Shown in pieces: positions 7,144 to 58,544 of a DNA stretch of 64,000 bases (within the stretch, counting starts at the first letter, position 1; the number at the start of each line of letters is the position of its first letter). The notes under the pieces are model-generated. The model was not told where the DNA came from. It worked only from the letters and a program-made list of their open reading frames with translations, and searched no databases. Location of the stretch: contig JAHKLN010000011.1 in assembly GCA_020854755.1 (NCBI GenBank), positions 2,131-66,130 of the forward strand. Reading direction: 5' to 3'. The DNA comes from Methanomicrobiaceae archaeon (GTDB lineage Archaea > Halobacteriota > Methanomicrobia > Methanomicrobiales > Methanoculleaceae). Both the position numbers and the translations under genes were made by a program.

Positions 7144-8193
7144 GCCGCCCCTGACCTGATTTGATTGGTTTTATCGGCTCTGTAAGTAAATACGTTTCGT
7201 TTCGGCTTTCACCGAGATCAGGCCCGGCTATGCAGATATTTCTCTCTACATGCCTGTATGGTCAAACGGGCGCTTCCAACCTATCCCCTCCCCCTGGCAG
7301 AGCGCAGATATCTTTACGTTCATACTCTCAACTCGAATGGTCTCGATGCGGGTCTGCACGCAGGAACAATATAAAAGGGGGATATCCGGCTTCCAATTGT
7401 CCACCGGACCGTTGCGATAGCATACAGGGGCAGACCCGCCCGCTCCAGGGGTATTGCGATGCCATCGCGGGCAGCGTTTTTGCCAGGCAATTACTCCATG
7501 TACGAGAAGATCGGTGCCGGCTTCCGGTAGCCAACCGGCCGCCCTGCTGTCCGACGCTGGGACTGATCGCCCCCGTAGACCAGAAACGATCGATCGGGGG
7601 TGTTGCCGGAAAGTTGGTTCCAGCGTGTTAGACCGTCCGAACAAGTGTTGTCTTTCCCGGCTGGCGGGGGGCGATTACTGATACCGCCGAAACCCGAGAG
7701 CGAGCGACCGGATCTTCTCCTCTGCATCCCGCCTGATGAAGGGGGTCGTCACTTCCTTATGGTTGGACATATTGTAAATCTTAGTTACAATTTGTCCATA
7801 TCTGCTCCCTCTCCAGAGGCCGGCGGGAACCGGGAGGGGCTGGTGGATATCCACGATCTGCCATTCCGGCCCACTGCGGAGAATGACGGATATAGCCCTG
7901 ACTGAGAGGGGACAGGGTAAAAAATCCATCGCGGTGAGCAGGATTGTCTGAAACCAATCAATCCACGATCAGTATAGCAGCATGCGGCGGTCGCATGCCC
8001 CCATCGCCGGGCTATAGAAGAGAAGGCCGTTCTGGCCTGGTCCAGCACTGTTTGAAAGATTTGCTTTAATGAATGCTCTGCCACGTTCTTCAATGATCTC
8101 GGTTCTCTGGAACTGAAGGAATCCGGGCTAAAGATGCAATGCTTATTACCTCCCGAGAAAAAGCTCCATTGGTAATAGCAATTGTGCGGTAAT

Positions 8194-8724: not shown

Positions 8725-9272
8725 AACGCGTTTTCATGTTGATTCTGGCGATCAGCATAGCTTTTTTCTGCCCGGCACTTGCAGCATCGCAGGATTCGGG
8801 CGCTGATGGGTGGGAACTCCTCCCGGAGAGCCGCCAGAGCCATCCCTGGGAAAGAATGCCTGACGAATCTTCAGAAGAAAGGGCGGTAAAAGTCGAATTT
8901 GTCAACGATCTACCCTGGAACTACACGGTGAGTCTTGATGAATGCACACTGGAAGCGATCGACTCGGCAACACCCTCCGGGAATACGTTTATTCTCGCAT
9001 CGGGCATCCCTGAAACGAGATATCTCGAACCCGGCTTCCACTCATTCGTGTTTAAGAGCCATACTGATTGGGTAGCCTTTGGGTACTCCGCGAGTGATTC
9101 GATTCGTTTTGAAGAGGGTTACACGTATAGAATGACGTTCCTTGACCCGGGAGGTTATTCTTCGAAACACGGCGTGGAAACCAGCCATCCACCGGAGAGA
9201 AGCATACCCGCTTCAGGATGGGAGGCAGGCATCCTTGCGGTGGTGTTTGTGCTCTTGATCAGGAGGCGGTGA
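8721..9272 (+). CDS. secreted protein with C-terminal transmembrane anchor
   Basis: TTG 8721 has GGAGG 8 nt upstream and overlaps the upstream stop (TTGA). Signal-like [20 protein letters not shown] at the N-terminus; C-terminal [18 protein letters not shown]. Confidence 0.6.
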
Positions 9273-9442
9273 GTGTTTCCCTGGAGTGTCCGGGTATGCG
9301 GTTCAATTTGGATCGAATGAGTCTCGCTGGAGATATCGGTGAAATGAGTCACGATAGGCTATATCGCAATAAGGCCATGCCGGGGTATCGTCTTGGCAGG
9401 GAGTATCCGTGGCGATGCCCGCCACGATCTCCTGCGGGATCT

Positions 9443-24614: not shown

Positions 24615-25045
24615 CTATGTCTGCATCTCTCCGGCGATCTGCTGGATCTTGATGATCACGAACTCTGCGGGCTCGAGCGGTGCAAAACCGACGACGATGT
24701 TGACCATCCCCCGGATGCCGCCAAACAGGCTTTCTTCGATGAAGAGGGCCATCCTGCGCACCGGGATGTATCTGTACTCGTCGGCGAACCGGTCGCCTTC
24801 CTGCAGCGTCCGCGCGCCCAGCAGTGCTGCATCGAGGCCTGCAGGAGACTTCCAGACCCCCGGGTTGCATCCGTCCCGGCAACGATGCCGGCGATCATGC
24901 CGCAGGGCGCGAAGGTATCGAGCGGTCCACCCGGTTCGGGTCCGCCTGGATCACCCGGGGGAAGAAGAGGGCGGCATTCCGGGTCTCTTTCCCGGTCAGG
25001 CCCAGAGTCGCCAGGCCGTTCCGCGCGGACGCGGCATGCCGCCGC
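24615..25045 (-). pseudogene. 5'-truncated, internally deleted copy of the eCIS sheath gene (3' part only)
   Basis: ARNGLATLGLTGKETRNAALFFPRVIQADPNR matches sheath residues ~309-340. DNA next to the stop (24615..24617) is near-identical to 50033..50180. Antisense ORF 24582..25088 parallels 50077..51129 with two blocks missing. The upper boundary is approximate. Confidence 0.7.
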
Positions 25046-28197: not shown

Positions 28198-30969
28198 TCA
28201 CGCATGCGTGCTGCCGTCCCTCATGCTTGCCGGCTTGCTGATCGGTACCGAGGCGCCGCGGGTCAGGTTGTCGGCAGCGATCCACTGCGGCATCCCCCTG
28301 TCGGTCGTGGCAACCGCACGGACAAGGATCCCGGTATTTGCGTTCTCTATGTGGTTCTGCCGCAGGACGATCATGGGGCCGAGGACGCCGTAGACCTTGA
28401 TCCCCACGACGTCGGCCTGCCGCAGGTTGTTCACCCGCACGATATTGCTCTCGGCGATCAGGCTCCGGCAGTTGCCGGTAAAGATGCCGTGGGCGGGGTC
28501 GGGGCAGAGCGGTGTTGCCGTGATCTCCACCGTATTGCCCGATATAATCGCCCTGTCGATGAAGTCGTGGTCGTTGCGCGGCGCATTTGCGTGGCTCACC
28601 CCCAGGTGGATGCCCTGGGTCGCCCCCCGGATTGTGTTGTAGAGGATCCGGACGTCGGGCTGCGAAGAGCCTGCGATCAGGATACCCCGGGCGGCGGACG
28701 GCGGGGCGCTCACCGCTTTATCCAGCCAGCCGGCCAGCGAGGGGAACTTCCGCCTGAGATCCTCCTCCCGGAGGACGCGGTCCACGTGTGAGAACACGAA
28801 CGTCTTCGCATCCCCCGGCCGGTCGAATGCAGGAGCGCTCGCTGCTCTCACCAGCGCCTGCAGATCCTTTTCGAGTGCAGGGGCGGTTGCGAGCCGGATG
28901 GTATGGCTGCCGATGGGGATGGCGATATACTTCCCTGCTTCCCGCACGGGCTGGTCGACGACGAGTCCCTTGAGGAGCCGTCCGACGATCTCCTTCCGGA
29001 GCCCCCGGTCCACGCGGATCGCAGCGAGGGGGTCCCTTCTGGGCTCGCCGTGCACCGCGATATCGTTCTGCTCGATCCTAACGCGGCCTGCGTTTGAAAC
29101 CAGGATGCCAATCTGCCGGTTGGCCGGAGAGAGGTCGCACCCCCGGATCCGGACCGACGCGGTGGCTCGGGCGTTCGCTCCCGGGTCGGGGTTCCATACT
29201 CCCAGGCAGGCGATGCCGTCCCGGCGCCCTGCCGCCCCCCGCACCGTCACCCGCTCGACCGTGACGCTGCCGCAGCGGTCGAAGGCGAGCACGCCGTTAA
29301 GCGTCTGCTCTCCCCCTGCCGCCCCCTCTGCTCCGGCGCTGACCATGATGTCCTCCACCACGACGCTCTCCCATCCGGAAAACACCAGCGCCGGCCGGGA
29401 AGCGGGTGCCGCAATCATCGTTCCCTTTCCGCATCCCGACAGACGGAGGTGGCCGCTGCCGGAAAAGACGATCGTATCGTCAATGCTGTATTCTGCCGCC
29501 TGGAGGCAGATCCGGGCGCTCTTTTTCCCCGTCACCCGGGACGGGCAGTTCCTGAGATCCGATGGGAGCACCACCACGGTGCAGCTCCCGTCCCGCCGCC
29601 GGCAGATGGCATCGAGAGCCTCCTGGACCGTTGTTGAGTCCTCCATCTCGCAGGCAGTCCCCGAAAAATCGACGTCTTCTGCAGAAATAGCGGTAGCGGG
29701 AGGAAACAGCCTCCGGCAGTCCTTCACGACCCCGACCGTCCCGCCCGACACACCGAGGATCGCGAGCGGGCAGTAATGGTGCTCCACCCCGTCGGGAGGC
29801 CTGAATGCGGGTTCATCGCCGGCATCGAGCGGCCACTCGATGGCATCGGTGATCGTCCGGGACGGGATCAGCCAGTAATCGCCGGGCGACAGCGCCCCCT
29901 GGCGGAAGGCCACCTGGATGCCCTCCTCGAGATCCATCCACTCCTCGCCGCCGGGCAGCGATCCGACATAATCCCAGAGGCGGACTGTCGGGTTCGTGAA
30001 CGATTCGAGGCGGATGACGGTGTCGCTGCCGGGAGGGCGTATCGTCTCCGGGTCGATGATCAGGTCTTCTCCCTCCAGGCCGATCAATCGGGCGACGACC
30101 CCGGCAATGCCCTTCCGCTCCCGGAGTTCGTCGGTGATCTCTATCCATCGTCCCCCTGCAGTCCGGCAATCCCGGAATGCGTCGAGCACGCGGGAGGGCG
30201 CGTCTTTCAGCGTGATCCTTCCATCTGGCGATGAGGCCGAGCAGCGGGCGGCAAAGGCGGCGTTATCGCGCGACCATTTGATGAGAGGCAGATGTCCGCC
30301 GGAGAACTCCTCGTGCACCTCCACCCGGTAGAGCTGGTTCTCCAGGCGGCGGTACTCCCCCGCAGTGATCTCGCACGGCCCGGCATGTGCCTGGCTGCGG
30401 TTGTATCGCGCCTTCATCATCCCCTGTACGGCCTCGCCCTCGATCGGGTCGCTGCATGATGGCTGTCCGCCGGGGGATCGCCTGGCCCGGATCTCCCAGG
30501 CCACTTCGGTGCGGGTGGCGGTATCCGGGCCGCCGAGCGCCACTTCCCGGATATTCGGGTCCTCGAGCGCCGAGACATGCCGCTCCCACACATCCAGGTA
30601 CACGAAGTGGTATCCGGTCTCGAGCGGCCAGGGAAAGGTCAGCAGGCCTCTCTCTGCCAGCGCGTCCCCGGCCGCCGGGACGATCAGATCCGCTTCGTTC
30701 TCGCAAAGTATCCCGTCCACGTAGTACCGGCCGCGGGTCACCGCGATCCCGCCGCCCTCCGTCGGCCGGATCGCGAACCCCGCGGGCGCATCCCCCTTCG
30801 GCCCCCCGTGGTGGCCGATCAGGTCTCTATCGGCAGAGCGGCGGCGATACCTCTCGATATCCGCCTGCTCGTTCCAGTCCGCATCGAGCTGCACCCTCCC
30901 CTGCTGCATGCGGACACCGGAATAGTGCTTCTCCCGCGAAAATGAATTGCGGGTAAAATCTCCATACAT
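28198..30969 (-). CDS. eCIS terminal gene: DUF6519-like N-terminus + right-handed beta-helix-like C-terminal region (candidate receptor-binding/depolymerase protein)
   Basis: ORF 28198..30987 starts at a GTG; ATG 30969 has GAGGAGG ~8 nt upstream. N-terminus MYGDFTRNSFSREKHYSGVRMQQGRVQLDADWNEQ. The C-terminal third has short repeated units (ILYNTIRGATQGIHLG, ISGNTVEI, AESNIVRVNN, LRQNHIENANTGILV). Confidence 0.7.
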   Translation of the reverse strand: MYGDFTRNSFSREKHYSGVRMQQGRVQLDADWNEQADIERYRRRSADRDLIGHHGGPKGDAPAGFAIRPTEGGGIAVTRGRYYVDGILCENEADLIVPAAGDALAERGLLTFPWPLETGYHFVYLDVWERHVSALEDPNIREVALGGPDTATRTEVAWEIRARRSPGGQPSCSDPIEGEAVQGMMKARYNRSQAHAGPCEITAGEYRRLENQLYRVEVHEEFSGGHLPLIKWSRDNAAFAARCSASSPDGRITLKDAPSRVLDAFRDCRTAGGRWIEITDELRERKGIAGVVARLIGLEGEDLIIDPETIRPPGSDTVIRLESFTNPTVRLWDYVGSLPGGEEWMDLEEGIQVAFRQGALSPGDYWLIPSRTITDAIEWPLDAGDEPAFRPPDGVEHHYCPLAILGVSGGTVGVVKDCRRLFPPATAISAEDVDFSGTACEMEDSTTVQEALDAICRRRDGSCTVVVLPSDLRNCPSRVTGKKSARICLQAAEYSIDDTIVFSGSGHLRLSGCGKGTMIAAPASRPALVFSGWESVVVEDIMVSAGAEGAAGGEQTLNGVLAFDRCGSVTVERVTVRGAAGRRDGIACLGVWNPDPGANARATASVRIRGCDLSPANRQIGILVSNAGRVRIEQNDIAVHGEPRRDPLAAIRVDRGLRKEIVGRLLKGLVVDQPVREAGKYIAIPIGSHTIRLATAPALEKDLQALVRAASAPAFDRPGDAKTFVFSHVDRVLREEDLRRKFPSLAGWLDKAVSAPPSAARGILIAGSSQPDVRILYNTIRGATQGIHLGVSHANAPRNDHDFIDRAIISGNTVEITATPLCPDPAHGIFTGNCRSLIAESNIVRVNNLRQADVVGIKVYGVLGPMIVLRQNHIENANTGILVRAVATTDRGMPQWIAADNLTRGASVPISKPASMRDGSTHA

Positions 30970-30983
30970 GCTGTCAGACCTCC

Positions 30984-33062
30984 TCACGAAACATAGAATA
31001 TCCCCGCTTCAAACCCGAATCTGATATACTCATCAATCACCCTCCGAAGGTTCGATTCCCGGTCGGCCTGGAACAGCCTGTTGAACGCACCCATCTCCGA
31101 GCCGTTCTGTGCCCCTGTCAGGATATCCGGGCTGCATGCCGCGCTCAGCTGGGCATACCCCGGACGGCCGTAGCGCCGCCGGGTGAACGCAGGCCGGCGT
31201 GCGGCCTCCAGGGCTGCGATCTGCTGTTCCGTCCGATCTCCGGCTGTTCTTGCGGCCTCGAGACTCAGGTCGGGCTGACAGCGGTACCGCCGGGGGGTTC
31301 GCGACGCTCCCGGGACATAGCTGAAGCGGATGCAGCCCGCCTGCCTCCGCTCCACGGTGACATCAATGAGGAAGATCGAATCCGACGCCTCCAGTTCCGC
31401 CACGCAGACCTGACCAAAGACCGTGCAGCGCTCCATCACGGCTTTCGGCCCCTCCCCCGACTCCCATCCGGCGACTGCGGGGTACGACCCGTCCTCCGGA
31501 GGCGCATCCAGGATGCTCTCGCTGACGGTGAGGGGGCGTGCATCTGCGGGAATCCGCAGCGGCCCGCAGATGCTCCGGTGTATCGTCACCCCCGGGCGAT
31601 CGGACGCATCCGATGTCTGGAGGCTGTTTGCGCGCGGATAGCGGGGGCTGCCGTCCTGGTTGAGCGACCACCCGGGCACCAGGGTGGTGTGCGTGATCCG
31701 GATATCGGGCGATCCCGCAATCTGCAGCCCGCCCTCCACCAGGAACCCGTCCAGGGAGAAGGAGGATCCCTCCGCTCCCCGGATGACGTTGTTCCCGACA
31801 GGCCGCCAGGTCGGCCGGCAGCCCTCGCCCGCCTCGATCGTCACCGCGGTCTCCGGCGGCAGATCGATATCGAAATTCCCTCCGTAGACGCCGTTATCCT
31901 CGACCCGGATGACGAGCACGCGCCTGCCTTCGGACTCACCGATATCCAGGCATCGGTCCCTCGCCTCCTGCAGGGTCGTGCACGCCCCGTTCTTTGAGAC
32001 CCGGATCACGCATGCATCGGGATCGGCTGCACGCTGCCGGGGATACGGTCCGCCCCCCATATCCGCAGAGAAGCCGTAGCAGTACGAGACCTCCACCTGC
32101 GCCGGCGACCCGCCGTCGGGGAAGGCAAGCCGTCCTCGCTCCGGGTCGATCGCCACCTTCCCGGGCCCGGGCCGCTCCCACGCACTCAGGTCGGCCACGA
32201 CGATTGCCGAGGCGGGAACAAGCCTGCCGTCACGGTAGACGGCAAGGGCGCAGCCCTCCCCGTACAGCCGGGAGCGTCCGGGCCACCCGGTATCGGGCCG
32301 TGAGTCCGAGCGGGCCATAAACTCCCTGAGATCGTCCTCCAGCGCTCCCGGACGGATTGCGCCTGGCACATGCTCCTCACCGGAGATCCGGGAGATATCC
32401 TCCTCCGTGGACGGGAGGGAGAAGAGGGGGAGATCGGTACCGAGCGTGCTGAAGTGGTACAGCCCCCGGGAACCGCGGGCAGGAGCGCGGAGCATCTGGT
32501 AGGGCGTCAGCCGCCAGAGGAAGATGCCGATATGGGGGATGTTGAACCTGCCCCTGCCGCTCCCGATCCGGCGCACCTCGGCCGTGTGCGCCAGACGGCT
32601 AAACGGCGTCCCCAGGAGATCGAGGGCGTTTCGATCCCGCAGATCCGCCGTGCCGCCGCCGTCGCGTACGTGGGCGAGGTGCTGCGTCCTCGCCAGTGCC
32701 TGGAAGAACTCAACGGCATGGGCGGGCCACCGGGTGATGTCGCGGGCCAGCTGCTCCAGCACGGCCGCCGTCCCCTTCCTGCGGCGATAGGCGATGCTGT
32801 TGGCGACGTATGCCCGAAGGCTGCTCCCCTCTCCCGGGGTGAGCAGGCCGGCGCCGAGGGCGTCCCCGATGTAGGGCACCGCCCACTCCGCACAGGTCTC
32901 GATGAAGAGATCGTCGTACAGCTGATCCAGGTTCTCCTCCAGTGCCCGCACCTCATCCGCAATCACCCCGAGCAGCTGCAAAAGCGGCTCCCCGCGTTCG
33001 CCGTCGCGTATGCGGTAGATGGCGGGCAGCAGGGAATAGAGGGTCTCATCATCGAAGTTCAT
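30984..33062 (-). CDS. phage P2 gpI-like tail/baseplate protein
   Basis: N-terminus LYSLLPAIYRIRDGERGEPLLQLLGVIADEVRALEENLDQLYDDLFIETCAEWAVPYIGDALG. ATGA overlap with the upstream gene. Confidence 0.8.
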   Translation of the reverse strand: MNFDDETLYSLLPAIYRIRDGERGEPLLQLLGVIADEVRALEENLDQLYDDLFIETCAEWAVPYIGDALGAGLLTPGEGSSLRAYVANSIAYRRRKGTAAVLEQLARDITRWPAHAVEFFQALARTQHLAHVRDGGGTADLRDRNALDLLGTPFSRLAHTAEVRRIGSGRGRFNIPHIGIFLWRLTPYQMLRAPARGSRGLYHFSTLGTDLPLFSLPSTEEDISRISGEEHVPGAIRPGALEDDLREFMARSDSRPDTGWPGRSRLYGEGCALAVYRDGRLVPASAIVVADLSAWERPGPGKVAIDPERGRLAFPDGGSPAQVEVSYCYGFSADMGGGPYPRQRAADPDACVIRVSKNGACTTLQEARDRCLDIGESEGRRVLVIRVEDNGVYGGNFDIDLPPETAVTIEAGEGCRPTWRPVGNNVIRGAEGSSFSLDGFLVEGGLQIAGSPDIRITHTTLVPGWSLNQDGSPRYPRANSLQTSDASDRPGVTIHRSICGPLRIPADARPLTVSESILDAPPEDGSYPAVAGWESGEGPKAVMERCTVFGQVCVAELEASDSIFLIDVTVERRQAGCIRFSYVPGASRTPRRYRCQPDLSLEAARTAGDRTEQQIAALEAARRPAFTRRRYGRPGYAQLSAACSPDILTGAQNGSEMGAFNRLFQADRESNLRRVIDEYIRFGFEAGIFYVS

Positions 33063-40755: not shown

Positions 40756-41055
40756 TCACCCTTCAGGCTGCGGGACGGGCACCCGGAGCACCCTTCCGGC
40801 CTCGGCGGTCAGTTCGAGCGGGTGCATGGCATCGTTCGCATCGCAGATGCGCCAGAACATCGTCGGGTCTCCGAGCGTCCGGGCTGCGATCAGGTCGAGG
40901 CGGTCCCCCTGCTGGACGCGGACCTCGGCCAGGAGGGGGAGATCCCCGCTCCCGGGCAGGAAGCGCCTGGGCATATAGGAGCATTCCCGCCCGTCGCGTG
41001 CGGTGAACCGGAGCGGTTTCTGGTGGGCGTACCGGCTTGTATACTCGAACATCAT
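40756..41055 (-). CDS. LysM-like / phage tail protein X-like
   Basis: 99 aa. VQQGDRLDLIAARTLGDPTMFWRICDANDAMHPLELTAEAGRVLRVP shows a LysM-type pattern. Confidence 0.7.
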   Translation of the reverse strand: MMFEYTSRYAHQKPLRFTARDGRECSYMPRRFLPGSGDLPLLAEVRVQQGDRLDLIAARTLGDPTMFWRICDANDAMHPLELTAEAGRVLRVPVPQPEG

Positions 41056-41064
41056 CTGCGCCTT

Positions 41065-41715
41065 CTAGAGGATCCTGCTCATACCCGCCGCATCAAGGCC
41101 GGTGGGAATGCCTATTCTGGCCATGGTCTCCTTGCCGATCTGGTGGGCGATGAAGAGGGCGTGCCCCGGATGCGACGGCATGAGATCGTTGTAGCTCAGC
41201 ACCCGGAGGCCGAGGGTTACCCTGGCCCGGATCGGGTTGAGATGTACGTCGTGCGCCTCTTCGGTCACCCTGAACTCGGTCACCTGAACGGGGAGGATGC
41301 GCATGGGCCCGTAGATGAAGAGGGTGAAGGCAGCCGGCGGGGGCACGACCTCGATGATCCCCATCTCCATGAGGGCAATGTTTGCAAGCACCCTGCTGCT
41401 CTGCGGATAGAGGAGCACCTCGAGCGCCGCGAGCTGGGGGTGGATGCCCATGCCGGTCGCGAGGACGTCAGCCTTTTCCAGCTGATCCGTGGCGTCGATC
41501 TCCAGCTCGAGGCTGATCGTCTCGACCGGCGCCCCCTTCAACCGGAGGGCCGACGTCCGTTCCCCGCCCTCTCCTCCGGCCGTCTGCGCCTGCAGCGTCC
41601 GCGTGAGCGTATCGGGGTTATACTGAAAGACTATCACGCTGGGTGTGGGGCTGGGCAGATCGAAGGACACAAGCGCCCCTTTGAGAAGCCTTGGGGAACC
41701 GGGAAATGTCGTCAC
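41065..41715 (-). CDS. conserved tail protein with tube-adaptor/initiator-like N-terminus (Afp5/Afp7 class, tentative)
   Basis: GTG start with GGGG ~10 nt upstream. LLKGALVSFDL...VIVFQYNPDTLTRTL. First gene after a ~300-bp gap. Confidence 0.7.
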   Translation of the reverse strand: MTTFPGSPRLLKGALVSFDLPSPTPSVIVFQYNPDTLTRTLQAQTAGGEGGERTSALRLKGAPVETISLELEIDATDQLEKADVLATGMGIHPQLAALEVLLYPQSSRVLANIALMEMGIIEVVPPPAAFTLFIYGPMRILPVQVTEFRVTEEAHDVHLNPIRARVTLGLRVLSYNDLMPSHPGHALFIAHQIGKETMARIGIPTGLDAAGMSRIL

Positions 41716-42012
41716 TACATATAACCCCTTTGTATATCAGTAAAGAAGGTGCATCAGGAATAAAGGTTTTTGGTTGATTGTTTCTGCTTCCTGTGGAATC
41801 TTCGCGTCTCTGCATCGTCTGTTGTCAGTCGATGCATGATCCGGTGCTTCTCCGGGCGGGATCTTCACCGGTCTCCCTGCAGCCTCCGGCCTCGTGAGCC
41901 GCTCCATGCAGGCGGTCGATCCTGCCGGGGGAAGAGGGTGAGCCGATCCTTTATGGACCGGCAGGCAGGCCTCCCGGCAGAGGAACGCCTGCATCACCGT
42001 GCACCGGAGAGG

Positions 42013-42939
42013 CTACTGCTCTTCGTAATAGCCTCCCGATCCGGCCTTTGGTACCGAACTGCGGCTGGCGGGCGAGCTCGGGATGACATTCCCCGCCCCG
42101 TCAAGCACCCTGAGTTGACCGGCGTCCAGGCGTCTCTGGCAGCACAGGTCGCAGTCCGATCCGCCGCAGGCGCGCCCCTCTGCATTGTTATGCAGATCCA
42201 TCTTATTCTCATTGGCAGGCCCGTCGCCATGGCGTTCGTGGCCGGTGGCGATGGTCTCTGCCTGGTCGGCGCCAATTTCAGCCGTCATCGTGCAGTTCCA
42301 GTAACAATGCCGCCAGGCGTCTGCGGGCCCGTTATGCAGCCCCGGCAGTCCCGTCGCTCTGGCTCGTACCAGGGCGCGATCGGCAAGCCGGCTTGCCTTG
42401 TAGGCATCCCAGGGGCCGACTCCCAGGACAGCGCTCCACATCTCGCCCAGACCGGCGCGGGCGATCTGCAGCCCGGAGGGCGTCACCCTGGGGGGCTCCA
42501 CCCGCCCGTGCAGCACCTGTCTGGCTGCGGCGATGGCCTCACGTTCGTACAGGTCTCCTTCCTGGCCGCCACTGCCGGCGCTCTGCTGCATCGCGTGGGT
42601 CAACTCATGGGCGAGTAGTTGTCGCCCTTCGCCTGTTTCCGGGGCGTACTGCCCGGTCCCGAAGACCAGGTCCCGTCCCACCGTGTACGCCTTCGCATTC
42701 ACCGCTCGCGCCGACTCCGCGGCTTTTGCGCCAGTATGCACCCGCACCCGGGCAAAATCGTGGTTGAATCCCGATTCCATGAACTCCCGCGTCCTCCGGT
42801 CCAGCGGCTGCCCGGGCGAGCGCAGCACCTCGTGCACGATCGGCGGGATATGGCCGGCATCGCGGCGCTGCAGGATGCCGGCCCGGGAGGGCGTGATAGA
42901 GGATGCCGCCGCCGCAGCCTGGTGGTGTTTCATGGTCAT
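42013..42939 (-). CDS. DUF4157 (HExxH zincin-like) protein with unknown Cys/His-rich C-terminal domain; candidate eCIS payload
   Basis: PIVHEVLRSPGQPLDRRTREFMESGFNHDFARVRVHTGAKAAESARAVNAKAYTVGRDLVF...LLAHELTHAMQQ. The C-terminal part has ADAWRHCYWNC, HERHGDG, MDLHNNAEGR and CGGSDCDLCC. Confidence 0.85.
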   Translation of the reverse strand: MTMKHHQAAAAASSITPSRAGILQRRDAGHIPPIVHEVLRSPGQPLDRRTREFMESGFNHDFARVRVHTGAKAAESARAVNAKAYTVGRDLVFGTGQYAPETGEGRQLLAHELTHAMQQSAGSGGQEGDLYEREAIAAARQVLHGRVEPPRVTPSGLQIARAGLGEMWSAVLGVGPWDAYKASRLADRALVRARATGLPGLHNGPADAWRHCYWNCTMTAEIGADQAETIATGHERHGDGPANENKMDLHNNAEGRACGGSDCDLCCQRRLDAGQLRVLDGAGNVIPSSPASRSSVPKAGSGGYYEEQ

Positions 42940-42947
42940 TGAGAACC

Positions 42948-44327
42948 TCAGCGTGCGTACCTGCTGTTGATCATCCTGCGCAGTCCTCGCTCGCCGCCCA
43001 GCCGGAACGTGGGATCTTGCTCGTAGAGGAACCGGAAGATGCGTTCCCGTGCACGCTGCTCGACCTGCTGGTTTAACAGCGCCGTGCGCTTCTGGAGTTC
43101 GGGTCCCCAGCTGTCAATAGGCTGGTAGAGTAGGACTTCCGGTGCCATGCGGCGATACTGGTCGCGAAACTCCGTGCGCCGCAGAAACTCAATCTCCATC
43201 TGAATGGCCCGCCGAACGCTCTGTTCGGACGGCGTCAGCTCGCGGCGAATGGCGCGGCGCAGGTGCTCGAAGGCGGTGCAGCTGATCCCGAAACACGTCC
43301 GCTCTTCTCTGGGCCGTCTGTCTTCCGGTGCCGCACTGATGGTTGCTTGCGGGCGCTGCCGCCGGGGCGCCGGCAATGGCGTGGGGGCAGGCTTCGGGGT
43401 GGGCGCCGGTGGCGGTGCCATGCGGTGGGCGACGACGCTGCGGCGGTCCGCACGCGCGCCGGGCGTTGCACCGTGCTTGAAGATGCCGGCGATCCGGGCC
43501 GGAAAGACACTCGCGTTCTCCAGCACGCTTCTCGCTCTGAGCGCCCGCAGGCAGGAGAGATGTTCGTTGAAATCGGCCGGCCCGTCTTCGCTTGCAAACC
43601 CGTGAATCGTCACGGAGTCGCCGGGCTGAAGCCGACCGGCAAAACTGCGCAGCCGTGCTTCTTCGCCGGCGAGAAAATCGTCGCAGTTCACGGCGAACCG
43701 GAAGAGCTCCTCGCTGCTTGTACCGACGTCGGTGATGTCGCCGCACATGCCCTCACAGCCCGCGACGGGGCGCATGCCGGATGGCCTGTAGCATGCCCGC
43801 TGGAGCGGCGCCGGGGCATTGCCGCACCGCCCGGCACTGGAGCGGCCATCGGCCGACCCCGACGCGATCTGATCGGCCTCGTGCTCGTACCGGCTCTCGC
43901 ACGGCTCTATCCTGAGGTCTCCTGGCGTGCGTACGCCGCCCTGCTGCACCACGTGAGCCAGTTCGTGCATCAGCAGCGCTCTTCCTTCCGCCATATCCGG
44001 CGCAAATCGGCCGGCGTCAAAGACGATGTCGCGGCCGACCGTATACGCCAGCGCGTTGACCGCCCGCGCCGATTCCGCCGCCTTTGCATCCGCGTGCACC
44101 CGCACCCGGGAAAAGTCGTGGCCGAACCGGGGCTCCATATCGGCGCGGGTGGCCGGGTCGAGAGGCCGCCCCGTGGAGCGCAGCACTTCATGCACGATCG
44201 GCGGCGCCATCTCCTGCGTGGACCTCAGAGCCGAACGCTGCAGGGCCGGCATCTTTTGAGAACAATCGCATATCCGCTGCAGGACTCCGCCGGCCTGTTC
44301 TGCCTGAGCAGCAGCCATCTGTCTCAT
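42948..44327 (-). CDS. DUF4157 (HExxH zincin-like) protein with OmpA-C-like domain and basic helical tail; candidate eCIS payload
   Basis: PIVHEVLRSTGRPLDPATRADMEPRFGHDFSRVRVHADAKAAESARAVNALAYTVGRDIVF...LLMHELAHVVQQ. The middle region VTIHGFASEDGPADFNEHLSCLRALRARSVL is OmpA/MotB-like. A PAPTPKPAPTPLPAP linker follows. Confidence 0.85.
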   Translation of the reverse strand: MRQMAAAQAEQAGGVLQRICDCSQKMPALQRSALRSTQEMAPPIVHEVLRSTGRPLDPATRADMEPRFGHDFSRVRVHADAKAAESARAVNALAYTVGRDIVFDAGRFAPDMAEGRALLMHELAHVVQQGGVRTPGDLRIEPCESRYEHEADQIASGSADGRSSAGRCGNAPAPLQRACYRPSGMRPVAGCEGMCGDITDVGTSSEELFRFAVNCDDFLAGEEARLRSFAGRLQPGDSVTIHGFASEDGPADFNEHLSCLRALRARSVLENASVFPARIAGIFKHGATPGARADRRSVVAHRMAPPPAPTPKPAPTPLPAPRRQRPQATISAAPEDRRPREERTCFGISCTAFEHLRRAIRRELTPSEQSVRRAIQMEIEFLRRTEFRDQYRRMAPEVLLYQPIDSWGPELQKRTALLNQQVEQRARERIFRFLYEQDPTFRLGGERGLRRMINSRYAR

Positions 44328-44581
44328 CTCCCTATCCCTCCGTATACTGCCTGTGCGATTCGGGTGCCGAGATTGCAGGGGTCGTTTCCGCCCTCCAGCC
44401 GGATCGTCCCCCCGGGCACGCGTGGCCGTGCGCCCCCCGGGGCGAGATCGGCGGAGAGCCCGCCGGCGGCCAGCATCCGCGCCAGCTTGCCCTCCACCGC
44501 CGCCTGCAGGAGCGGGCGCTCGCTGTAAGGGATATCGATCCCGTCCAGCACCAGGCGCTCGATATGTACCGTGATCTTCAT
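44324..44581 (-). CDS. small conserved eCIS-associated protein (85 aa)
   Basis: Start at ATG 44581 (MKITVHIERLVLDGIDIPY...). ATGA overlaps on both sides, with the ATPase stop and the DUF4157 start. Confidence 0.6.
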   Translation of the reverse strand: MKITVHIERLVLDGIDIPYSERPLLQAAVEGKLARMLAAGGLSADLAPGGARPRVPGGTIRLEGGNDPCNLGTRIAQAVYGGIGR

Positions 44582-46629
44582 GCGTCTCCTCCTTTCTTCG
44601 CCGCCTCCGTCCACCGGAAGTCGGCCTCGTTGATCGGGCGCTCCATCTTCCGGAACTCGGCCCTTGCCGCCTGAAGCACGAGCGGCATGGTCACCGGGGT
44701 GCCTGCCTCTGCCGCAAGGAAGGCGGCGTTGAGGGCGGTGTTGTGGATGCTCCCACCGGTCAGGTTCAGCCGGGCCAGCCGGTCGATCTCCAGCCCCTCG
44801 GTCTCTGTCTCGGGTGGAAAGACCCTCTCCCAGATGCGCCTGCGTTCGGGCTGCCCCGGGAAGGGGAAGGCGACGATGAACCTGAGCCTGCGGAGGAAGG
44901 CGGGGTCGAGCGATGACTTCATGTTCGTCGCCAGGATCGCAAGCCCCCTATACGCCTCGATCCGCTGCAGCAGGTAGTTGATCTCGATATTCGCATAGCG
45001 GTCGTGGCTGTCCTTCACCTCGCTGCGTTTGCCGAAGAGGGCATCGGCTTCGTCGAAGAAGAGGATCGCCCCTCCGTCCTCCGCCGCGTCGAAGAGCCGC
45101 CGCAGGTTCTTCTCCGTCTCACCGATATACTTGTTGACCACGGCGGAGAGGTCAATGCGGTACAGATCAAGGCCGAGATCGTTGGCGATCACCTCTGCGG
45201 CCATGGTCTTGCCGGTACCGCTCTCCCCTGCAAAGAGTGCGCTGATCCCGAGCCCGCGGTTCATCCGGTGCCGAAATCCCCACTCGTCGTAGACAGTGCT
45301 TCGCCGCCTCACCTGGTCGGCGATCCGGCGGAGCAGTGACTGTTGCTCCTCGGGAAGGACGAGATCCTCCCATCGGGCCTTCGGATCGATCCGCCGTGCA
45401 AGCTGCTCTATCCCCGGCCGGGTTCTCTCCAGGCATGCCGACCACAGCCCGTCATGGAGGCCGGTATCGCCGTCGTCCGCCCCGTCGAGCACCGGGCCTG
45501 CGATCTGCCGGATCGCCTGAAGGTTCAGGTTGAACTGGCCGGCGAGGAGTGCCGGGCTCTCTTTGCCCCTCTCTCCGAGCGCCGCAGCCCACGCAGCCTT
45601 CTGTTCGGCCGGTGTCGGTCGCTCGATGTCCAGGATCAGGGTGGTGCGATCGAGATCCGGCCTGACCTCCCGGGTGTCGATCAGGGCAGGGCCTCCGTAC
45701 AGCAGGAGAAAACGTTCGAGCGTAGCGTTCTGTGCCTCGCCGGCCGTTCCCGGTTCACCCTCCAGGCCGGCGTCGAGGTAGAGTGCTATCGGCACAAGCA
45801 GGCTCTCGCGCTGCCAGAGACGGGCCAGCATATCGAGGTCGGCCGCCTGGGAAGGCAGCAATGCAACGGGGATACGGGTGATCCGGATGCCGGCGCTCAA
45901 TACGGCGTGGTGCGTCACGGCCTGCTTGCTCACCGTATCAGGACCGACGAGCTGGACAAGAGTCGGCCTTCCGGAATCGCCCTCCCCCTGCAGATGCCGT
46001 CGAATGCGTTCGGCTGCGGCGAACTGGCTCGGGGAGAGCGCTTCCGGTTCGGCGTATGCCGTATCGAACGGGACGGTGAACGGGATCAGCCGGTTGTCGA
46101 GCCTGTTATGCCCCTTGATGAAATGCACAACCCGCTCGTCGGCCTGCAGGGCGCTGGCGGTCAGGGGAAGGGCCGCCTGCTGGTGGCATTCGATCAGGCG
46201 GTAGTAGCGCAGCGGGCGTTCCGGCAGGAGCGCATCCCAGGAACGATCCTCAAACAACGCGAGCGCCAGGGCAAACGTCGGGTAGGGCCTTCCGGGGTCG
46301 TCCTGCGCCCGGGCGCAGAGCCCGGAAATCCTGGTATCGAGCTCCATGGCGGCGCAGAGCAGGAGCACCTCCTGCTCGAACCGGGAGAGCCCGAACTGCC
46401 GGGCAAGGAGGGTCAGCGCCGGAGAAGGAAGCGCCGCTTCGGCGGCGGCCATGGCTTCCGCGGCACGGGCGATTGCTTCGCCCGAAGGGAGGCGCCCTTC
46501 GGGCGATCCCCCTGCCTGCGGTTCGTCCGGGCCGCCGGCTGCGAACCGCTGCAGGAGGAGGCGAAGCCAGGCTAATGCCGCGGCGAGGTACTCCTCGTTG
46601 TTCTCTTCCCACTCTTCGTATGGACTCAT
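44578..46629 (-). CDS. AAA+ ATPase (Afp15-like)
   Basis: Walker A GESGTGKTMAAE, Walker B ILFFDEADALF, sensor LAILATN, and a ~400-aa non-ATPase N-terminal region. Confidence 0.95.
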   Translation of the reverse strand: MSPYEEWEENNEEYLAAALAWLRLLLQRFAAGGPDEPQAGGSPEGRLPSGEAIARAAEAMAAAEAALPSPALTLLARQFGLSRFEQEVLLLCAAMELDTRISGLCARAQDDPGRPYPTFALALALFEDRSWDALLPERPLRYYRLIECHQQAALPLTASALQADERVVHFIKGHNRLDNRLIPFTVPFDTAYAEPEALSPSQFAAAERIRRHLQGEGDSGRPTLVQLVGPDTVSKQAVTHHAVLSAGIRITRIPVALLPSQAADLDMLARLWQRESLLVPIALYLDAGLEGEPGTAGEAQNATLERFLLLYGGPALIDTREVRPDLDRTTLILDIERPTPAEQKAAWAAALGERGKESPALLAGQFNLNLQAIRQIAGPVLDGADDGDTGLHDGLWSACLERTRPGIEQLARRIDPKARWEDLVLPEEQQSLLRRIADQVRRRSTVYDEWGFRHRMNRGLGISALFAGESGTGKTMAAEVIANDLGLDLYRIDLSAVVNKYIGETEKNLRRLFDAAEDGGAILFFDEADALFGKRSEVKDSHDRYANIEINYLLQRIEAYRGLAILATNMKSSLDPAFLRRLRFIVAFPFPGQPERRRIWERVFPPETETEGLEIDRLARLNLTGGSIHNTALNAAFLAAEAGTPVTMPLVLQAARAEFRKMERPINEADFRWTEAAKKGGDA

Positions 46630-54700: not shown

Positions 54701-54736
54701 CCTATTAGATCCTACAGGTATTCACCGTTGATTTAT

Positions 54737-56494
54737 ATGCACCTTATAGAACAACCGGGGGGATCGGCCCGCGTCGAGCTGCAAAAGAGCCCGACCGGGA
54801 TTCAGGGCCTGGATGAGATCACGCTCGGCGGCCTGCCGAGAGGGCGCACGACGCTTGTGGTCGGCAAGGCGGGATCCGGCAAGACCCTGCTCGGGATGGA
54901 GTTTTTAGTCCGCGGCGCGCTGGAGTTCGGGGAACCCGGCGTCTTCTTCTCGTTTGAGGAGACGGCCGGGGATCTCACCCAGAATGTCGCATCCCTCGGC
55001 TATGACCTGAACGATCTCCGGGAGAGAAACCTGCTCTCGATCGATCATGTGGAGGTATCCCGGAGCGATATCGTCGAGACGGGGGAGTACGATCTCGAGG
55101 CGCTCTTCATCCGGCTCGGCTACGCCATCGACTCCGTCGGCGCACAAAGGGTCGTCCTGGATACCATCGAGTCGCTCTTCTCCGGCTTTGCGGATACCGC
55201 CATCCTCCGCGCCGAACTCCGGCGGCTCTTCTTCTGGCTGAAGGAGAGAGGCGTCACCGCCGTCGTCACCGGGGAGAGCGGTGAGGCGACCATGACCCGC
55301 CATGGCCTGGAGGAGTACATCTCCGACTGCGTGATCCTCCTGGATCACCGGGTCGACGAGCAGATCTCCACCCGCCGCCTCCGGGTGGTGAAGTACCGCG
55401 GGTCGGTCCATGGCACCAACGAATATCCCTTCTTAATCGACGAGAACGGGATCTCCGTGCTGCCGATCACCTCCGCCGGGCTGACGCATACCGTCAGCCG
55501 GGACCGCATCTCAAGCGGCGTCGATCGCCTCGACGCCATGCTTGAAGGAGAGGGGTTCTACCGCGGCAGCACGATCATGATTGCCGGGACGCCCGGCACC
55601 GGCAAGACCAGTTTCGGGGCGAGTTTCGGGGACGCTGCCTGCCTCCGGGGCGAGAAATGCCTCTACTTCGCCTTTGAGGAGTCGCCGGACCAGATCGTCC
55701 GGAACATGCAGTCCATCGGGATCGATCTGGCGCCCCATATCACCGCCGGCCTGCTTGAGATTCACGCCTCCCGGCCGACCATGTACGGCCTGGAGATGCA
55801 CCTTGTCCTGATGCTCAAGCAGATCCAGGAGCGGCAGCCCGATGTGGTGGTGATCGATCCCCTGACCGATCTTATCTCAATCGGTACGTCCAGAGACGTC
55901 AAGGTCATGCTCACGCGGCTCGTTGACTTCCTGAAGACGGACGGGATCACCGTGCTCTTCACCTACCTTGCCCACACGCGGGAGGCGGTAGCCCCCTCGG
56001 ACTTTGTCGTCTCCTCGCTCATCGATACCCTGATCCAGCTGCAGGATATCGAGTCTGCCGGCGAACGCAACCGCGGGCTGTACGTGCTGAAATCGCGGGG
56101 CATGGGGCATTCCAACCAGATCCGCGAGTACCGGATCACCGATGGCGGCATCGAACTCGCCAACATCTACGCCGGGCCCGCCGGGATGTTCTTTGGCACC
56201 TCCCGGTTCGTGCAGGAGGCGAAGGAGGAGGCAGAGCGCGAAGCGCGGGAGGAGGAGATCGCATACCAGCAGCGCGAGCTCGAGCGGAAGCGGAGCGTCA
56301 TGGAGGCCCGGATCGCCGCCCTGCGCAACGAGTTCGCCTCGCACGAGGAGCAAGTCCGGAGGCTGATCAAGGCGGAGGGCGCCCGGCAGGATGCGGTGAA
56401 AGCAGACACCCGGGCAATCCGGAAACTGCGAAAGGCCGATGAACCCGGGGAGAGCATGATCCGATCAACCGGAAGTACCGGGGAGGAGCAATGA
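54737..56494 (+). CDS. kaiC: KaiC-family double RecA-domain ATPase with charged coiled-coil C-terminal extension
   Basis: ATG 54737; the track start 54728 is a [19 protein letters not shown], Walker A GKAGSGKT (domain 1) and GTPGTGKT (domain 2). The tail is [26 protein letters not shown]... Confidence 0.9.
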
Positions 56495-56805
56495 CCGATA
56501 CGGAGGAGACCGCCCTGGAGGAGAACGGCGATGTCTGGATCCTGCGGCTCTACGTCGCCGGGCAGACCCCGAAATCGCTCGCGGCGTTCGCCAACTTAAA
56601 GCAGCTCTGCGAGGAGCACCTTGCCGGGAAGTACCGGATCGAGGTGATCGATCTCCTGGAGCACCCGCAGCTCGCCAAAGGCGATCAGATCTTTGCCGTC
56701 CCCACGCTCGTCCGGCGGCTTCCGCCGCCGCTGCGCAAGATCATCGGCGACCTCTCGAACACGGAGAAGGTCCTCGTCGGCCTGGATATACGGCCGGGGG
56801 GCTGA
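56491..56805 (+). CDS. kaiB: KaiB-like thioredoxin-fold protein
   Basis: [47 protein letters not shown]...[23 protein letters not shown] overlap with kaiC. Confidence 0.85.
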
Positions 56806-56809
56806 GCGC

Positions 56810-57160
56810 ATGGCTGATGAGAGAGAGCAGGAGCGGCGCTCGGCGGCGGAAAAGTTCGAGCAGGCGCTTGAGGGACGGGCGGATACCCGCTACATCCTCC
56901 GGCTCTACGTTGCCGGCATGACGCCCCGGTCGCAGCGGGCGATCGAGAATGTCAAGGCGATCTGCGAGACGCATCTTTCCGGGCGCTACGACCTTGAGGT
57001 GATCGATGTCTACCAGCAGCCCGAACGGGCGGGGGAAGCCCAGGTCGTGGCCGCGCCGACGCTCATCAAGCAGCTGCCGCTGCCGCTCCAGAGGCTGATC
57101 GGGGATATGTCTGATAAGGATCGCGTCCTGGTCGGGCTCGGCATCCAGAAGAAGGAGTAA
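56810..57160 (+). CDS. kaiB: KaiB-like protein, second paralog
   Basis: Start at ATG 56810. [45 protein letters not shown]...PTLIKQLPLPLQRLIGDMS. Confidence 0.85.
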   Translation: MADEREQERRSAAEKFEQALEGRADTRYILRLYVAGMTPRSQRAIENVKAICETHLSGRYDLEVIDVYQQPERAGEAQVVAAPTLIKQLPLPLQRLIGDMSDKDRVLVGLGIQKKE

Positions 57161-57179
57161 CGCTGCCGGGAGATCCAGC

Positions 57180-58544
57180 ATGCAGGAGTCAGAGCGTCCA
57201 CCCGATCCGAATGCTCCGCGGCTGCCACACGAGGAGGATCTCCTCCGCGTGCTGGAGGAGCTCTACGGAGGATTCGCCGATGCGAAGGAGACGCTTTCGG
57301 CGATCCGGAAGGGCGAGGTCGACGCCTTCCTCGTCTCCGCGGAGGACGGGGAGAAGATCTACACCTTAAAGACCGCCGAGCATCCCTACCGCGTGCTGAT
57401 CGAGCAGATGCGGGAAGGTGCGGCGATTCTGTCTGCCGGCGGCACCATCCTCTACAGCAACGAAAGCTGCGCCCGGCTGCTCGGGATGCCGCTCGAGAAG
57501 GTGATGGGGGAGTCGATCCACCGGTTCATTGCTCCTGCCGATGCGGTGCGTTTCCGGAGGATGATGGAGGCGGGGGATCTTTTTGGCAGTGCGGTCGAGA
57601 GCACGCTGCAGACGCCCGGAGGACGGCAGGTGCCGGTGCACCTCTCGCTGAAACTGCTGCAGTTGGACGGGGTGCAGATCTACTCCCTGGTCGCAACCGA
57701 TCTGACAGAGCGGGTACAGGCAGAAGAGACCCTGCGCAGGGCTTATGAAGAGCTCGAGGACCGGGTGGAAGAGCGGACCGCCGAACTGGCTGAGTACAAC
57801 GACCGGCTCCGGATCGAGATCGATGAGCGCAGGCGGGCCGAAGAGGCGCTTCGCTGCCGCACCGGCGATCTCATCCGGCAGAGCCGGGAGATCGAAGAGG
57901 CGCAGCGCATGGCGAACCTCTACCTGGACATCATGACGCATGATATCAGGAACGCCAACAACGTCTCGGGGATATACGCTGATCTTCTCGTCGATCTGCT
58001 CGAAGAGAATCTCAGGGAGTATGCGGAGCGGCTCCAGGCCAGCATCAAGAGGAGCACCGAGATCCTCCAGAACGTCGCCACCATACGGCGGATACATGCA
58101 GGTTCTCCCGACCTGGTGCCGGTTAATCTTGACGCCGTCATCAGGGAGGAGATCCGGAACTATCCCGGCGCAGCAGTCCGGTACGACCGGACGAACGCCA
58201 CTGTCCGGGCGGACGGCCTCCTCCCGGTGATCTTCACGAACCTGATCGGCAACGCCGTCAGGCACGCCGGATCCGGCGCCGATATTACCATCCGTGTGGA
58301 AGACCGGGACGGCGAGGTGCTCGTTTCGGTCGAGGATACCGGTCCGGGCGTGTCGGATGGGATGAAAGGAAAACTCTTCAACCGGTTCGAGCGCGACGGG
58401 AACATTGGCCGCGGAGAAGGCCTCGGCCTCTTCATCGTCCGGACGCTCGTTGAGCGCTACGGCGGCAGGATCTGGGCCGACGACCGCGTGCCCGGCCGCC
58501 CGGAGGAAGGGGCGGCGTTCCGGTTCACGCTCCGGAAGGCCTGA
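57180..58544 (+). CDS. cytoplasmic PAS histidine kinase (THDIxN type)
   Basis: PAS (REGAAILSAGGTILYSNESCARLLG), LDIMTHDIRNANN, NLIGNAVRHAG, DTGPGV, GLGLFIV. The C-terminal 30 aa are nearly identical to the kinase at 25199..27118. Confidence 0.85.
   Translation: MQESERPPDPNAPRLPHEEDLLRVLEELYGGFADAKETLSAIRKGEVDAFLVSAEDGEKIYTLKTAEHPYRVLIEQMREGAAILSAGGTILYSNESCARLLGMPLEKVMGESIHRFIAPADAVRFRRMMEAGDLFGSAVESTLQTPGGRQVPVHLSLKLLQLDGVQIYSLVATDLTERVQAEETLRRAYEELEDRVEERTAELAEYNDRLRIEIDERRRAEEALRCRTGDLIRQSREIEEAQRMANLYLDIMTHDIRNANNVSGIYADLLVDLLEENLREYAERLQASIKRSTEILQNVATIRRIHAGSPDLVPVNLDAVIREEIRNYPGAAVRYDRTNATVRADGLLPVIFTNLIGNAVRHAGSGADITIRVEDRDGEVLVSVEDTGPGVSDGMKGKLFNRFERDGNIGRGEGLGLFIVRTLVERYGGRIWADDRVPGRPEEGAAFRFTLRKA

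Follow-up and report, generated by a model that had tools for sequence, protein, structure and literature searches.

A remodelled OmpA-like module in an injection-system cargo encoded by a Methanomicrobiales archaeon, and its possible bacterial target

Why would an archaeon that is expected to lack murein encode domains of a type that usually binds peptidoglycan? This question is raised by a 64,000-nucleotide stretch of a Methanomicrobiaceae archaeon assembly (GCA_020854755.1, contig JAHKLN010000011.1, positions 2,131 to 66,130; the whole stretch is hereafter referred to as the window). An initial annotation had recognised in it an OmpA/MotB C-terminal pattern within a putative payload protein and a LysM-like protein within a putative baseplate, and had proposed that either the particle or its payload acts on bacterial cells or the modules are structural relics of a bacterial or phage ancestry. 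The payload gene (42948-44327, minus strand) encodes a cargo protein of 459 aa (P0002) and belongs to a phage-tail-like extracellular contractile injection system (eCIS) locus (28198-52251, minus strand), delimited by Pfam matches and by synteny with bacterial loci. According to our analysis, the segment encodes a genuine OmpA-C-like domain with an altered ligand site, shared with a mostly bacterial cargo family, and tentatively points to a cargo made for the bacterial envelope. The use of archaeal contractile injection systems against bacteria is an open question in recent work (PMC12352652), and the contractile injection systems of methanogens have been named as unexplored (PMC11566945).

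Fold, ligand residues and cysteine pairs of the OmpA-like module

The annotated segment, 43428-43715 on the minus strand, corresponds to aa 205-300 of the cargo protein, and the peptide quoted in the initial annotation is an exact match to aa 207-269. When the whole protein was compared with PF00691, the domain (aa 217-287) scored 23.8 bits for a cut-off of 27.2; the score rose to 26.7 bits with the excised domain and to 27.1-27.3 bits in a six-frame search of the genome, so that by Pfam alone the OmpA assignment is borderline. A profile was then built from 33 relatives, all sharing the whole 131-aa region. Its PDB matches were exclusively OmpA-like chains (YfiB, Pal, RmpM, OmpA and OmpATb, E 9e-6 to 1e-3), the top one being 9uu2, the C-domain of Bacteroides fragilis OmpA9. 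Relatives of the module also matched PF00691 by themselves at E<1e-3 (18/33 and 58/90, best 3e-13). The AlphaFold2 model of aa 175-305 (pLDDT 90.8, pTM 0.87) displays the strand and helix order expected for an OmpA-C-like domain, and all of its best 50 Foldseek matches in the PDB were OmpA-C-like (E ~1e-6, target TM 0.7-0.8, root-mean-square deviation ~2 Å). Because the profile of the relatives, their own PF00691 matches and the structural comparison agree, the OmpA-like fold can be considered as real. The module as a whole, delimited by these searches and by alignment, covers aa 175-305 (43413-43805, minus strand) and consists of a 30-aa, Cys-bearing N-terminal extension followed by a beta/alpha/beta/alpha/beta/beta core (aa ~207-303). 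The fold proposed from the sequence pattern hGhTD..G....N..LS..RA..V was therefore confirmed by profile and structure prediction, whereas the "TD" of this pattern reads "AS" here.

This substitution touches the ligand site. The peptidoglycan motif of De Mot and Vanderleyden reads TD-x10-LS-x2-RA-x2-V-x3-L (quoted in bioRxiv 10.1101/641415), and in Acinetobacter baumannii OmpA (AbOmpA) the diaminopimelate of peptidoglycan is gripped by Asp271 and Arg286 (PMC12108004, bioRxiv 10.1101/641415). In canonical domains, the Asp pairs with the amine of diaminopimelate, while the Arg touches its carboxylate. When aligned by HMMER to Pal, YfiB and AbOmpA, the module has Ser246 (codon 43590-43592, minus strand) at the Asp site and Arg261 (codon 43545-43547, minus strand), within LS-x2-RA, at the Arg site, the 15-residue spacing between them being unchanged. 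In an alignment of 169 family members, the canonical Asp position is occupied by Ser in every sequence (169/169), the ligand Arg is kept in 168 and an acidic residue is found two positions past the Ser (Asp248 here) in 168. Near-invariant as well in this alignment are the motif residues Gly, Asn, Leu-Ser and Ala, and the Leu following LS-x2-RA is also retained. The signature of the family is AS-x-[E/D]-G where canonical domains have TD-x-x-G. Of the two peptidoglycan-contacting residues that the initial annotation had singled out, the Arg is thus present and the Asp is missing. In SiiA, an OmpA-like protein of the type I secretion system encoded by the Salmonella pathogenicity island SPI4, the motif is likewise reduced and devoid of TD, and the protein still binds peptidoglycan in vitro via its Arg (bioRxiv 10.1101/641415). 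Hence, the replacement of the Asp weakens the case for peptidoglycan binding by the module without abolishing it.

Four near-invariant cysteines, at residues 179, 191, 215 and 259 of the protein, were also found in the family. Cys179 (codon 43791-43793, minus strand) and Cys215 (codon 43683-43685), at positions 5 and 41, are lost together (Fisher p=4e-8). In the same way, Cys191 (codon 43755-43757, minus strand) and Cys259 (codon 43551-43553), at positions 17 and 85, are both present in 161 members and both missing from six, without any discordant sequence (Fisher p=3.6e-11), while the remaining combinations gave p>=0.23. The five members devoid of Cys179 and Cys215 are each nearer to a four-Cys sequence than to each other, which indicates that several of the pair losses were independent. 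This covariation suggests two disulfides, Cys179-Cys215 and Cys191-Cys259, which would anchor the 30-residue extension at both the beta1-alpha1 loop and helix alpha2; Cys259 lies two residues before the ligand Arg261. A four-Cys zinc site was considered as well and is disfavoured, since the cysteines are lost as two separate pairs and not all at once. Disulfides of this kind would imply that the module folds or acts in an oxidising compartment such as the bacterial periplasm.

The architecture of the protein is that of an injected cargo. Its N-terminal leader (aa 1-54, 44166-44327, minus strand), delimited from the sequence, shows no signal peptide by eye and is probably a loading sequence, by likeness to AlgoCIS Cgo1 and Cgo2, two DUF4157-bearing proteins that sit in the tube lumen and are loaded via a disordered leader (bioRxiv 10.64898/2026.05.27.728243). 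It is followed by an eCIS_core (DUF4157) domain with a HELAH motif (aa 55-131, 43935-44165, minus strand; PF13699, E 1.7e-31, 108.6 bits). A linker separates this domain from the OmpA-like module. DUF4157 is well established as a sign of eCIS cargo (PMC8213781), and within the eCIS operon the gene has the AAA ATPase on one side and the baseplate genes on the other; with a PF13699 domain and its HExxH motif encoded inside such an operon, the protein is a DUF4157/eCIS_core cargo. Downstream of the OmpA-like module, a Pro-rich linker visible in the sequence (aa 306-338, 43314-43412, minus strand) leads to an all-helical C-terminal domain (aa 339-459, 42951-43313, minus strand; AlphaFold2 pLDDT 81). 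This last domain is a near-orphan, with a single non-self homologue among 5.8 billion sequences in a word-indexed search.

The module has many relatives. A complete HMMER search against 1.84 billion representatives retrieved 389 clusters at E<=1e-3 and 260 at <=1e-10, i.e., about 390 clusters at 50% identity, mostly bacterial. The eCIS_core domain was found in 73 of 90 family members. The regions located C-terminal of the module fall into about 20 unrelated groups among 34 members, and 13 different Pfam families were matched there among the 90, including M35 peptidases, DUF6973, DUF3238, Tlde1, PG_binding_1, Ntox44, phospholipase A2 and SprT-like domains. Such a layout is that of polymorphic toxins, with the OmpA-like module as the constant pre-toxin part. 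The module is not restricted to archaea and forms the conserved middle part of a cargo family that is mostly bacterial. Among predicted eCIS toxins (EATs), 68 bearing a peptidoglycan-binding domain had been counted by Danov et al. (PMC11297309). The literature on eCIS cargo cited here does not describe an architecture with an inserted OmpA-like module, nor its residue signature, and the ~390 clusters form a previously uncharacterised subfamily of OmpA-like domains with a fixed signature, made of AS-x-[E/D]-G and the two covarying Cys pairs.

Archaeal host and bacterial relatives of the locus

The taxonomy of the host was assessed from the ribosomal protein L21e, from flank-gene clusters and from two methenyl-tetrahydromethanopterin cyclohydrolase (Mch) genes. 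The genome encodes an L21e whose 90% cluster is entirely Methanoculleus, and two full-length Mch genes on contigs C117 and C52 (L002, L003). At 90% identity, the flanking genes on either side of the locus fall into clusters with proteins of Methanoregulaceae/Methanolinea and Methanomicrobiaceae, so that the contig is archaeal on both sides of the locus. Mixed signals were noted for contigs C28 and C34 of G000, with an L21e cluster that is entirely Methanoculleus and a flank gene of the window that clusters with Methanoregulaceae/Methanolinea; these reflect either loose source labels or a mixed bin, though the estimated contamination is 0.36%. The genes mcrA, mcrB and MtrA and an archaeal small-subunit rRNA were not found either, in an assembly that is 81% complete, so that their absence is not shown. 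In this 2.0-Mb assembly, neither a Mur ligase nor a Pfam LysM domain was found, and the OmpA-like domain of the cargo is the only OmpA match. Methanomicrobiales are well known to possess proteinaceous S-layers and are not known to make murein or pseudomurein. As expected from the initial annotation, the module thus sits in a Methanomicrobiales archaeon, a lineage expected to be devoid of murein.

A scan for the motif of the module, with one genome per species, yielded 14 loci, of which 12 are bacterial and 2 belong to Candidatus Methanoperedens. The bacterial loci come from Lysobacteraceae, Thiobacillus, Alphaproteobacteria, Anaerolineales, Nitrospirota, Marinobacter, Verrucomicrobiota and Acidobacteriota. 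The gene order of the window is common to L005, L006, L008-L012, L014 and L018, i.e., to most bacterial loci with sufficient flanks, and these carry one to four DUF4157 cargo genes in the cargo slot; in the Acidobacteriota loci L015 and L016, DUF4157 genes were the only matches. The window locus is syntenic with eCIS loci from at least six bacterial phyla. Its identity to the syntenic bacterial loci reaches 80-85% for the tube, 46-60% for the AAA ATPase and 49-63% for the sheath, whereas the Methanoperedens loci are far more distant from it. In a small sheath tree, whose sample is biased by the motif, the window and a remnant copy from the same family nest inside a bacterial clade (support 84/86), apart from a clade that joins Methanoperedens and two other Methanomicrobiales.

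Among 200 other Methanomicrobiales genomes, a sheath homologue was detected in four and the module in two. One of these, a member of another Methanomicrobiales family (G169), has the same locus type, with an OmpA-like cargo in the same slot. All residues that are invariant in the family are kept in the window copy and in four other archaeal copies, L013, L017 and L026 among them, and the module is intact rather than a decaying relic. The window is rich in G+C; the GC content of the locus is 66% for 60.5% in the genome; this excess, of about 1.7 standard deviations (SD) of 5-kb windows, was examined as evidence of transfer and set aside as too weak alone. Under the simplest reading of these sequence comparisons, a bacterial eCIS lineage would have been transferred into Methanomicrobiales, possibly more than once, the direction being unproven. 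The module would then occur in a murein-less archaeon because it is a fixed part of the cargo family of a bacterial eCIS lineage. Besides, fragments ~70-78% identical to the sheath were observed at ~24714-25041 (minus strand), 25 kb from the intact locus and beside a cardiolipin synthase gene, and a genome of the same family (G110, contig C5, L028 7824-9164) only contains a sheath with an internal deletion and a tube fragment. Both appear to be degraded copies from the eCIS lineage of the intact locus.

Possible target of the cargo and competing explanations

The OmpA-like cargo gene lies directly upstream of a second cargo gene (42013-42939, minus strand), whose 308-aa product combines DUF4157 with a BteO-like DUF6973 domain (PF22322, 69.9 bits, cut-off 27). 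BteO is an effector of the B. fragilis type VI secretion system (T6SS) that kills in a non-enzymatic manner, by binding the C-terminal OmpA-like domains of the target OmpA. Mutating R143, H144, H167, E168 or D191 abolishes both its toxicity and its binding to OmpA, and the immunity protein BtiO neutralises it through mimicry of the OmpA C-domain (PMC12541434). A phmmer search of the PDB with the 308-aa protein gave no match, BteO being reached by profiles only: a 46-sequence DUF6973 profile had 9uu0, a fusion of maltose-binding protein (MBP) and BteO, as its only PDB match, with a weak E of 0.0064. Each of the five BteO residues falls on an invariant column (R, H, H, E and D, respectively), the spacing being unchanged. 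From the DUF6973 match and the conservation of these residues, the second cargo is predicted to bind a protein domain found only in bacteria. Neither cargo gene is followed by one that resembles an immunity gene. An 86-aa open reading frame (ORF, 41737-41997) was considered as an immunity gene and rejected on its odd composition, its lack of homologues in other loci and its AT-rich 3' part. It is the sole ORF of a gap of ~300 nt (41716-42012) that separates the second cargo gene from the gene of the tube initiator, and looks non-coding; the gap is AT-rich near its 3' end and may hold an internal promoter. In other DUF6973 proteins (P0228, P0232, P0234, P0239, P0243 and P0258), Hint/intein-type domains (PF07591, PF01079, PF14890) were observed between DUF4157 and DUF6973, which suggests that some cargo frees its toxin domain by self-cleavage.

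Because of the retained Arg pocket, the paired cysteines, the envelope-directed partners of the module in its family (C-terminal Tlde1, PG_binding_1, phospholipase A2 and DUF6973 domains) and the BteO-like co-cargo, the bacterial envelope is the likeliest site of action. Our preferred reading, to which we give a little less than even chances, is that the archaeon inherited a module built for work in the bacterial envelope and that the cargo is probably antibacterial, peptidoglycan binding itself being putative. Together, the module and the BteO-like neighbour point to bacteria as the target, rather than to the murein-less producer. In such a scenario, the cargo would be packed unfolded inside the tube lumen and, upon injection into a diderm bacterium, would refold in the oxidising periplasm, where it would be locked by the Cys179-Cys215 and Cys191-Cys259 bridges. 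It could then dock at the peptidoglycan/outer-membrane tether layer through the remodelled OmpA pocket, in which the Arg is kept and TD is replaced by AS-x-[E/D], and this docking would keep the variable C-terminal domain at the envelope. A narrower version, which we regard as distinctly less probable, is that of a methanogen eCIS directed against diderm bacteria with both cargos targeting the tether that links outer membrane to peptidoglycan, one as a BteO-like binder of OmpA C-terminal domains and the other as a disulfide-stapled, Asp-less OmpA-like docker in the same layer.

Several points weigh against this preferred reading. The Asp is replaced by Ser in every family member, which makes canonical peptidoglycan binding doubtful, and the disulfides are deduced from covariation. 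The C-terminal domain of the cargo (aa 339-459) has no recognisable activity, matching nothing in Pfam or PHROG and no fold in the PDB, and the C-terminal domains of the family, most of which are unannotated, include Ntox44, a predicted cytoplasmic toxin. The bacterial loci of the sheath tree were retrieved by the module's own motif. Finally, expression of the locus and the particles themselves are putative, and its cargo set could be an unchanged inheritance without a current role. Regarding the two alternatives proposed at the outset, which both prove partly right and are not mutually exclusive, a bacterial ancestry is supported by synteny, by the sheath tree and by the family, and the intact residues speak against decay. 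An action of the payload on bacteria receives indirect support from the paired cysteines, the BteO-like neighbour and the lack of an immunity gene.

Other explanations of the same module have to be weighed against an envelope-directed cargo. The OmpA-like fold might be an inherited scaffold that does not bind the wall and instead serves as a pre-toxin spacer or folding nucleus for packing, release and refolding, the target being archaea, protists or none in particular. This is possible, at somewhat under one chance in three. The loss of the canonical Asp throughout the family and the association of the module with ~20 unrelated C-terminal domains, predicted cytoplasmic toxins included, would be in line with it. 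Besides, the role of DUF4157 cargo in loading versus refolding is still open (bioRxiv 10.64898/2026.05.27.728243), and DUF4157 proteins secreted by haloarchaeal contractile injection systems kill archaea (PMC11566945). However, a spacer does not need the rest of the peptidoglycan motif, which, including the ligand Arg, is near-invariant over the ~390 clusters. Moreover, the covarying Cys pairs argue for folding outside the cytoplasm, and the family includes Tlde1, PG_binding_1 and BteO-like partners. It seems less probable still that the locus is a silent or recently acquired island taken from a bacterium, with a non-functional cargo and a module that tells nothing of present biology. The patchy occurrence of sheath and module within the order, the decayed second sheath/tube copy nearby, the remnant of the relative G110 and the higher GC content of the locus would all fit an island of this kind. 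Against this, 20/20 ORFs are open and tightly packed, the invariant residues of the module are all intact, the GC excess is small relative to its variation, and a second Methanomicrobiales family retains the same locus type and cargo slot.

The proximity of the two cargo genes raises a last possibility, namely that the module is an OmpA mimic which, like BtiO, would occupy, in cis or in trans, the OmpA-binding groove of BteO-like (DUF6973) toxin domains and serve there as a chaperone or decoy. Indeed, BtiO acts as such a mimic (PMC12541434), the two genes are immediate neighbours, four of ~169 family members fuse the module and DUF6973 in one chain, and the best PDB profile match of the module, 9uu2, is the very domain bound by BteO. 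A systematic pairing of OmpA-like and DUF6973 cargo was nevertheless rejected, as DUF6973 was absent from the other loci fetched, within flanks of up to 8 kb, and a dedicated mimic or chaperone role is consequently unlikely. In most of the family the module is joined to other C-terminal domains, the majority of DUF4157-DUF6973 proteins lack the length to contain it, and the archaeal producer has no OmpA to protect. This possibility appears to us very improbable.

Remaining parts of the locus and comparison with known systems

By its gene content, the 28.2-52.3 kb region is a complete eCIS operon. Its order is sheath, tube, cap (Pvc16_N), AAA ATPase, a small conserved protein, the two DUF4157 cargo genes, tube-initiator-like, LysM-like, spike, PAAR-like, gp25, two Baseplate_J, a 692-aa protein and a DUF6519/beta-helix fibre. 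The LysM-like protein of 99 aa (40756-41055, minus strand), of P2 gpX type, shows a LysM-type sequence pattern and clearly matched PHROG baseplate wedge (1.4e-7) and hub (2.6e-6) families. It did not match the Pfam LysM family (PF01476), and its match to Phage_tail_X (E 0.014, 15.4 bits) stays below the cut-off of 22. Copies with 46-55% identity occur in the syntenic bacterial loci, and LysM has already been listed as an eCIS shell domain (PMC8213781). The protein can thus be regarded, from these matches, as an ordinary structural part of the baseplate, in agreement with the initial annotation. The adjacent gene (41065-41715, minus strand) encodes a tube-initiator-like protein of 216 aa (CIS_tube E 0.0015), which is also conserved among the syntenic loci.

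A conserved 96-aa protein (44324-44614, minus strand), encoded immediately upstream of the cargo genes, received no family assignment. Copies with 33-49% identity occupy the same slot in ten other loci, of which nine come from bacterial metagenome-assembled genomes and one from a Methanomicrobiales genome (L030), and in L009 the protein occurs twice (7222-7476 and 9160-9435), with a cargo gene behind each copy. A role as cargo chaperone or adaptor is possible. At the other end, the last gene of the locus (28198-30987, minus strand) combines DUF6519, known as the eBAP5 fibre anchor (PMC12923769), with a right-handed beta-helix; its product is a tailspike-like receptor binder, the ligand of which may be a surface polysaccharide. 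Just beside the locus, at 54728-58544, lie a KaiC homologue (NCBIfam PRK09302, E 4e-214) and, behind it, a PAS histidine kinase.

The producer is devoid of murein and OmpA, yet both of its cargos point to the bacterial envelope, which makes a directly testable prediction. If true, this would be a case of inter-domain antagonism via injected, non-hydrolytic envelope effectors. Besides, a constant pre-toxin module bears on the way in which cargo, once injected, is directed, and on eCIS payload engineering.

The closest known counterparts of the module are the PF00691 domains of Pal, OmpA, MotB, YfiB, RmpM and A. baumannii OmpA (3TD3-3TD5), with which it has the beta/alpha/beta/alpha/beta/beta fold in common and from which it retains LS-x2-RA-x2-x-x3-L, the ligand Arg and the C-terminal RR-x-V strand. 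It differs from them by the invariant AS in place of TD, with the acidic residue two positions further downstream, by the 30-residue N-terminal extension that two putative disulfides would hold to the core, by a score at or slightly under the Pfam cut-off, and by its location inside an injected cargo protein without signal peptide, barrel or lipobox. The periplasmic domain of SiiA is OmpA-like as well, with a reduced motif in which TD is absent and the Arg kept; however, SiiA is a stator-like inner-membrane protein of the producer itself and has no Cys staples, whereas the module is part of an injected cargo. As for the LysM-like protein, it matches the phage baseplate wedge and hub families as do the LysM-fold baseplate proteins of the P2 gpX/T4 gp53 type, lies between tube-initiator and spike, and is kept in all syntenic bacterial loci. 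In contrast to those proteins, it is encoded by a separate small gene instead of being a domain of the tube initiator, and stays below the LysM and Phage_tail_X cut-offs.

With the known DUF4157/eCIS_core cargos (AlgoCIS Cgo1/Cgo2; the EATs of Geller 2021 and Danov 2024; the haloarchaeal T6SS substrates), the 459-aa protein shares the succession of a leader, a DUF4157 domain with HExxH and a variable C-terminus, and it is likewise encoded in an eCIS operon beside the AAA ATPase. The subfamily described here has, in addition, an OmpA-like module as a constant insert that separates DUF4157 from the variable domain. Finally, compared with the BteO/BtiO/OmpA9 system of the B. fragilis GA3 T6SS (PMC12541434; 9uu0, 9uu2), the DUF6973 domain of the neighbouring cargo keeps the OmpA-binding residues of BteO, and no BtiO-like immunity gene is found at this locus. 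BteO is delivered by a T6SS between Bacteroides, whereas here the homologous domain is carried by a DUF4157 eCIS cargo of a methanogen.

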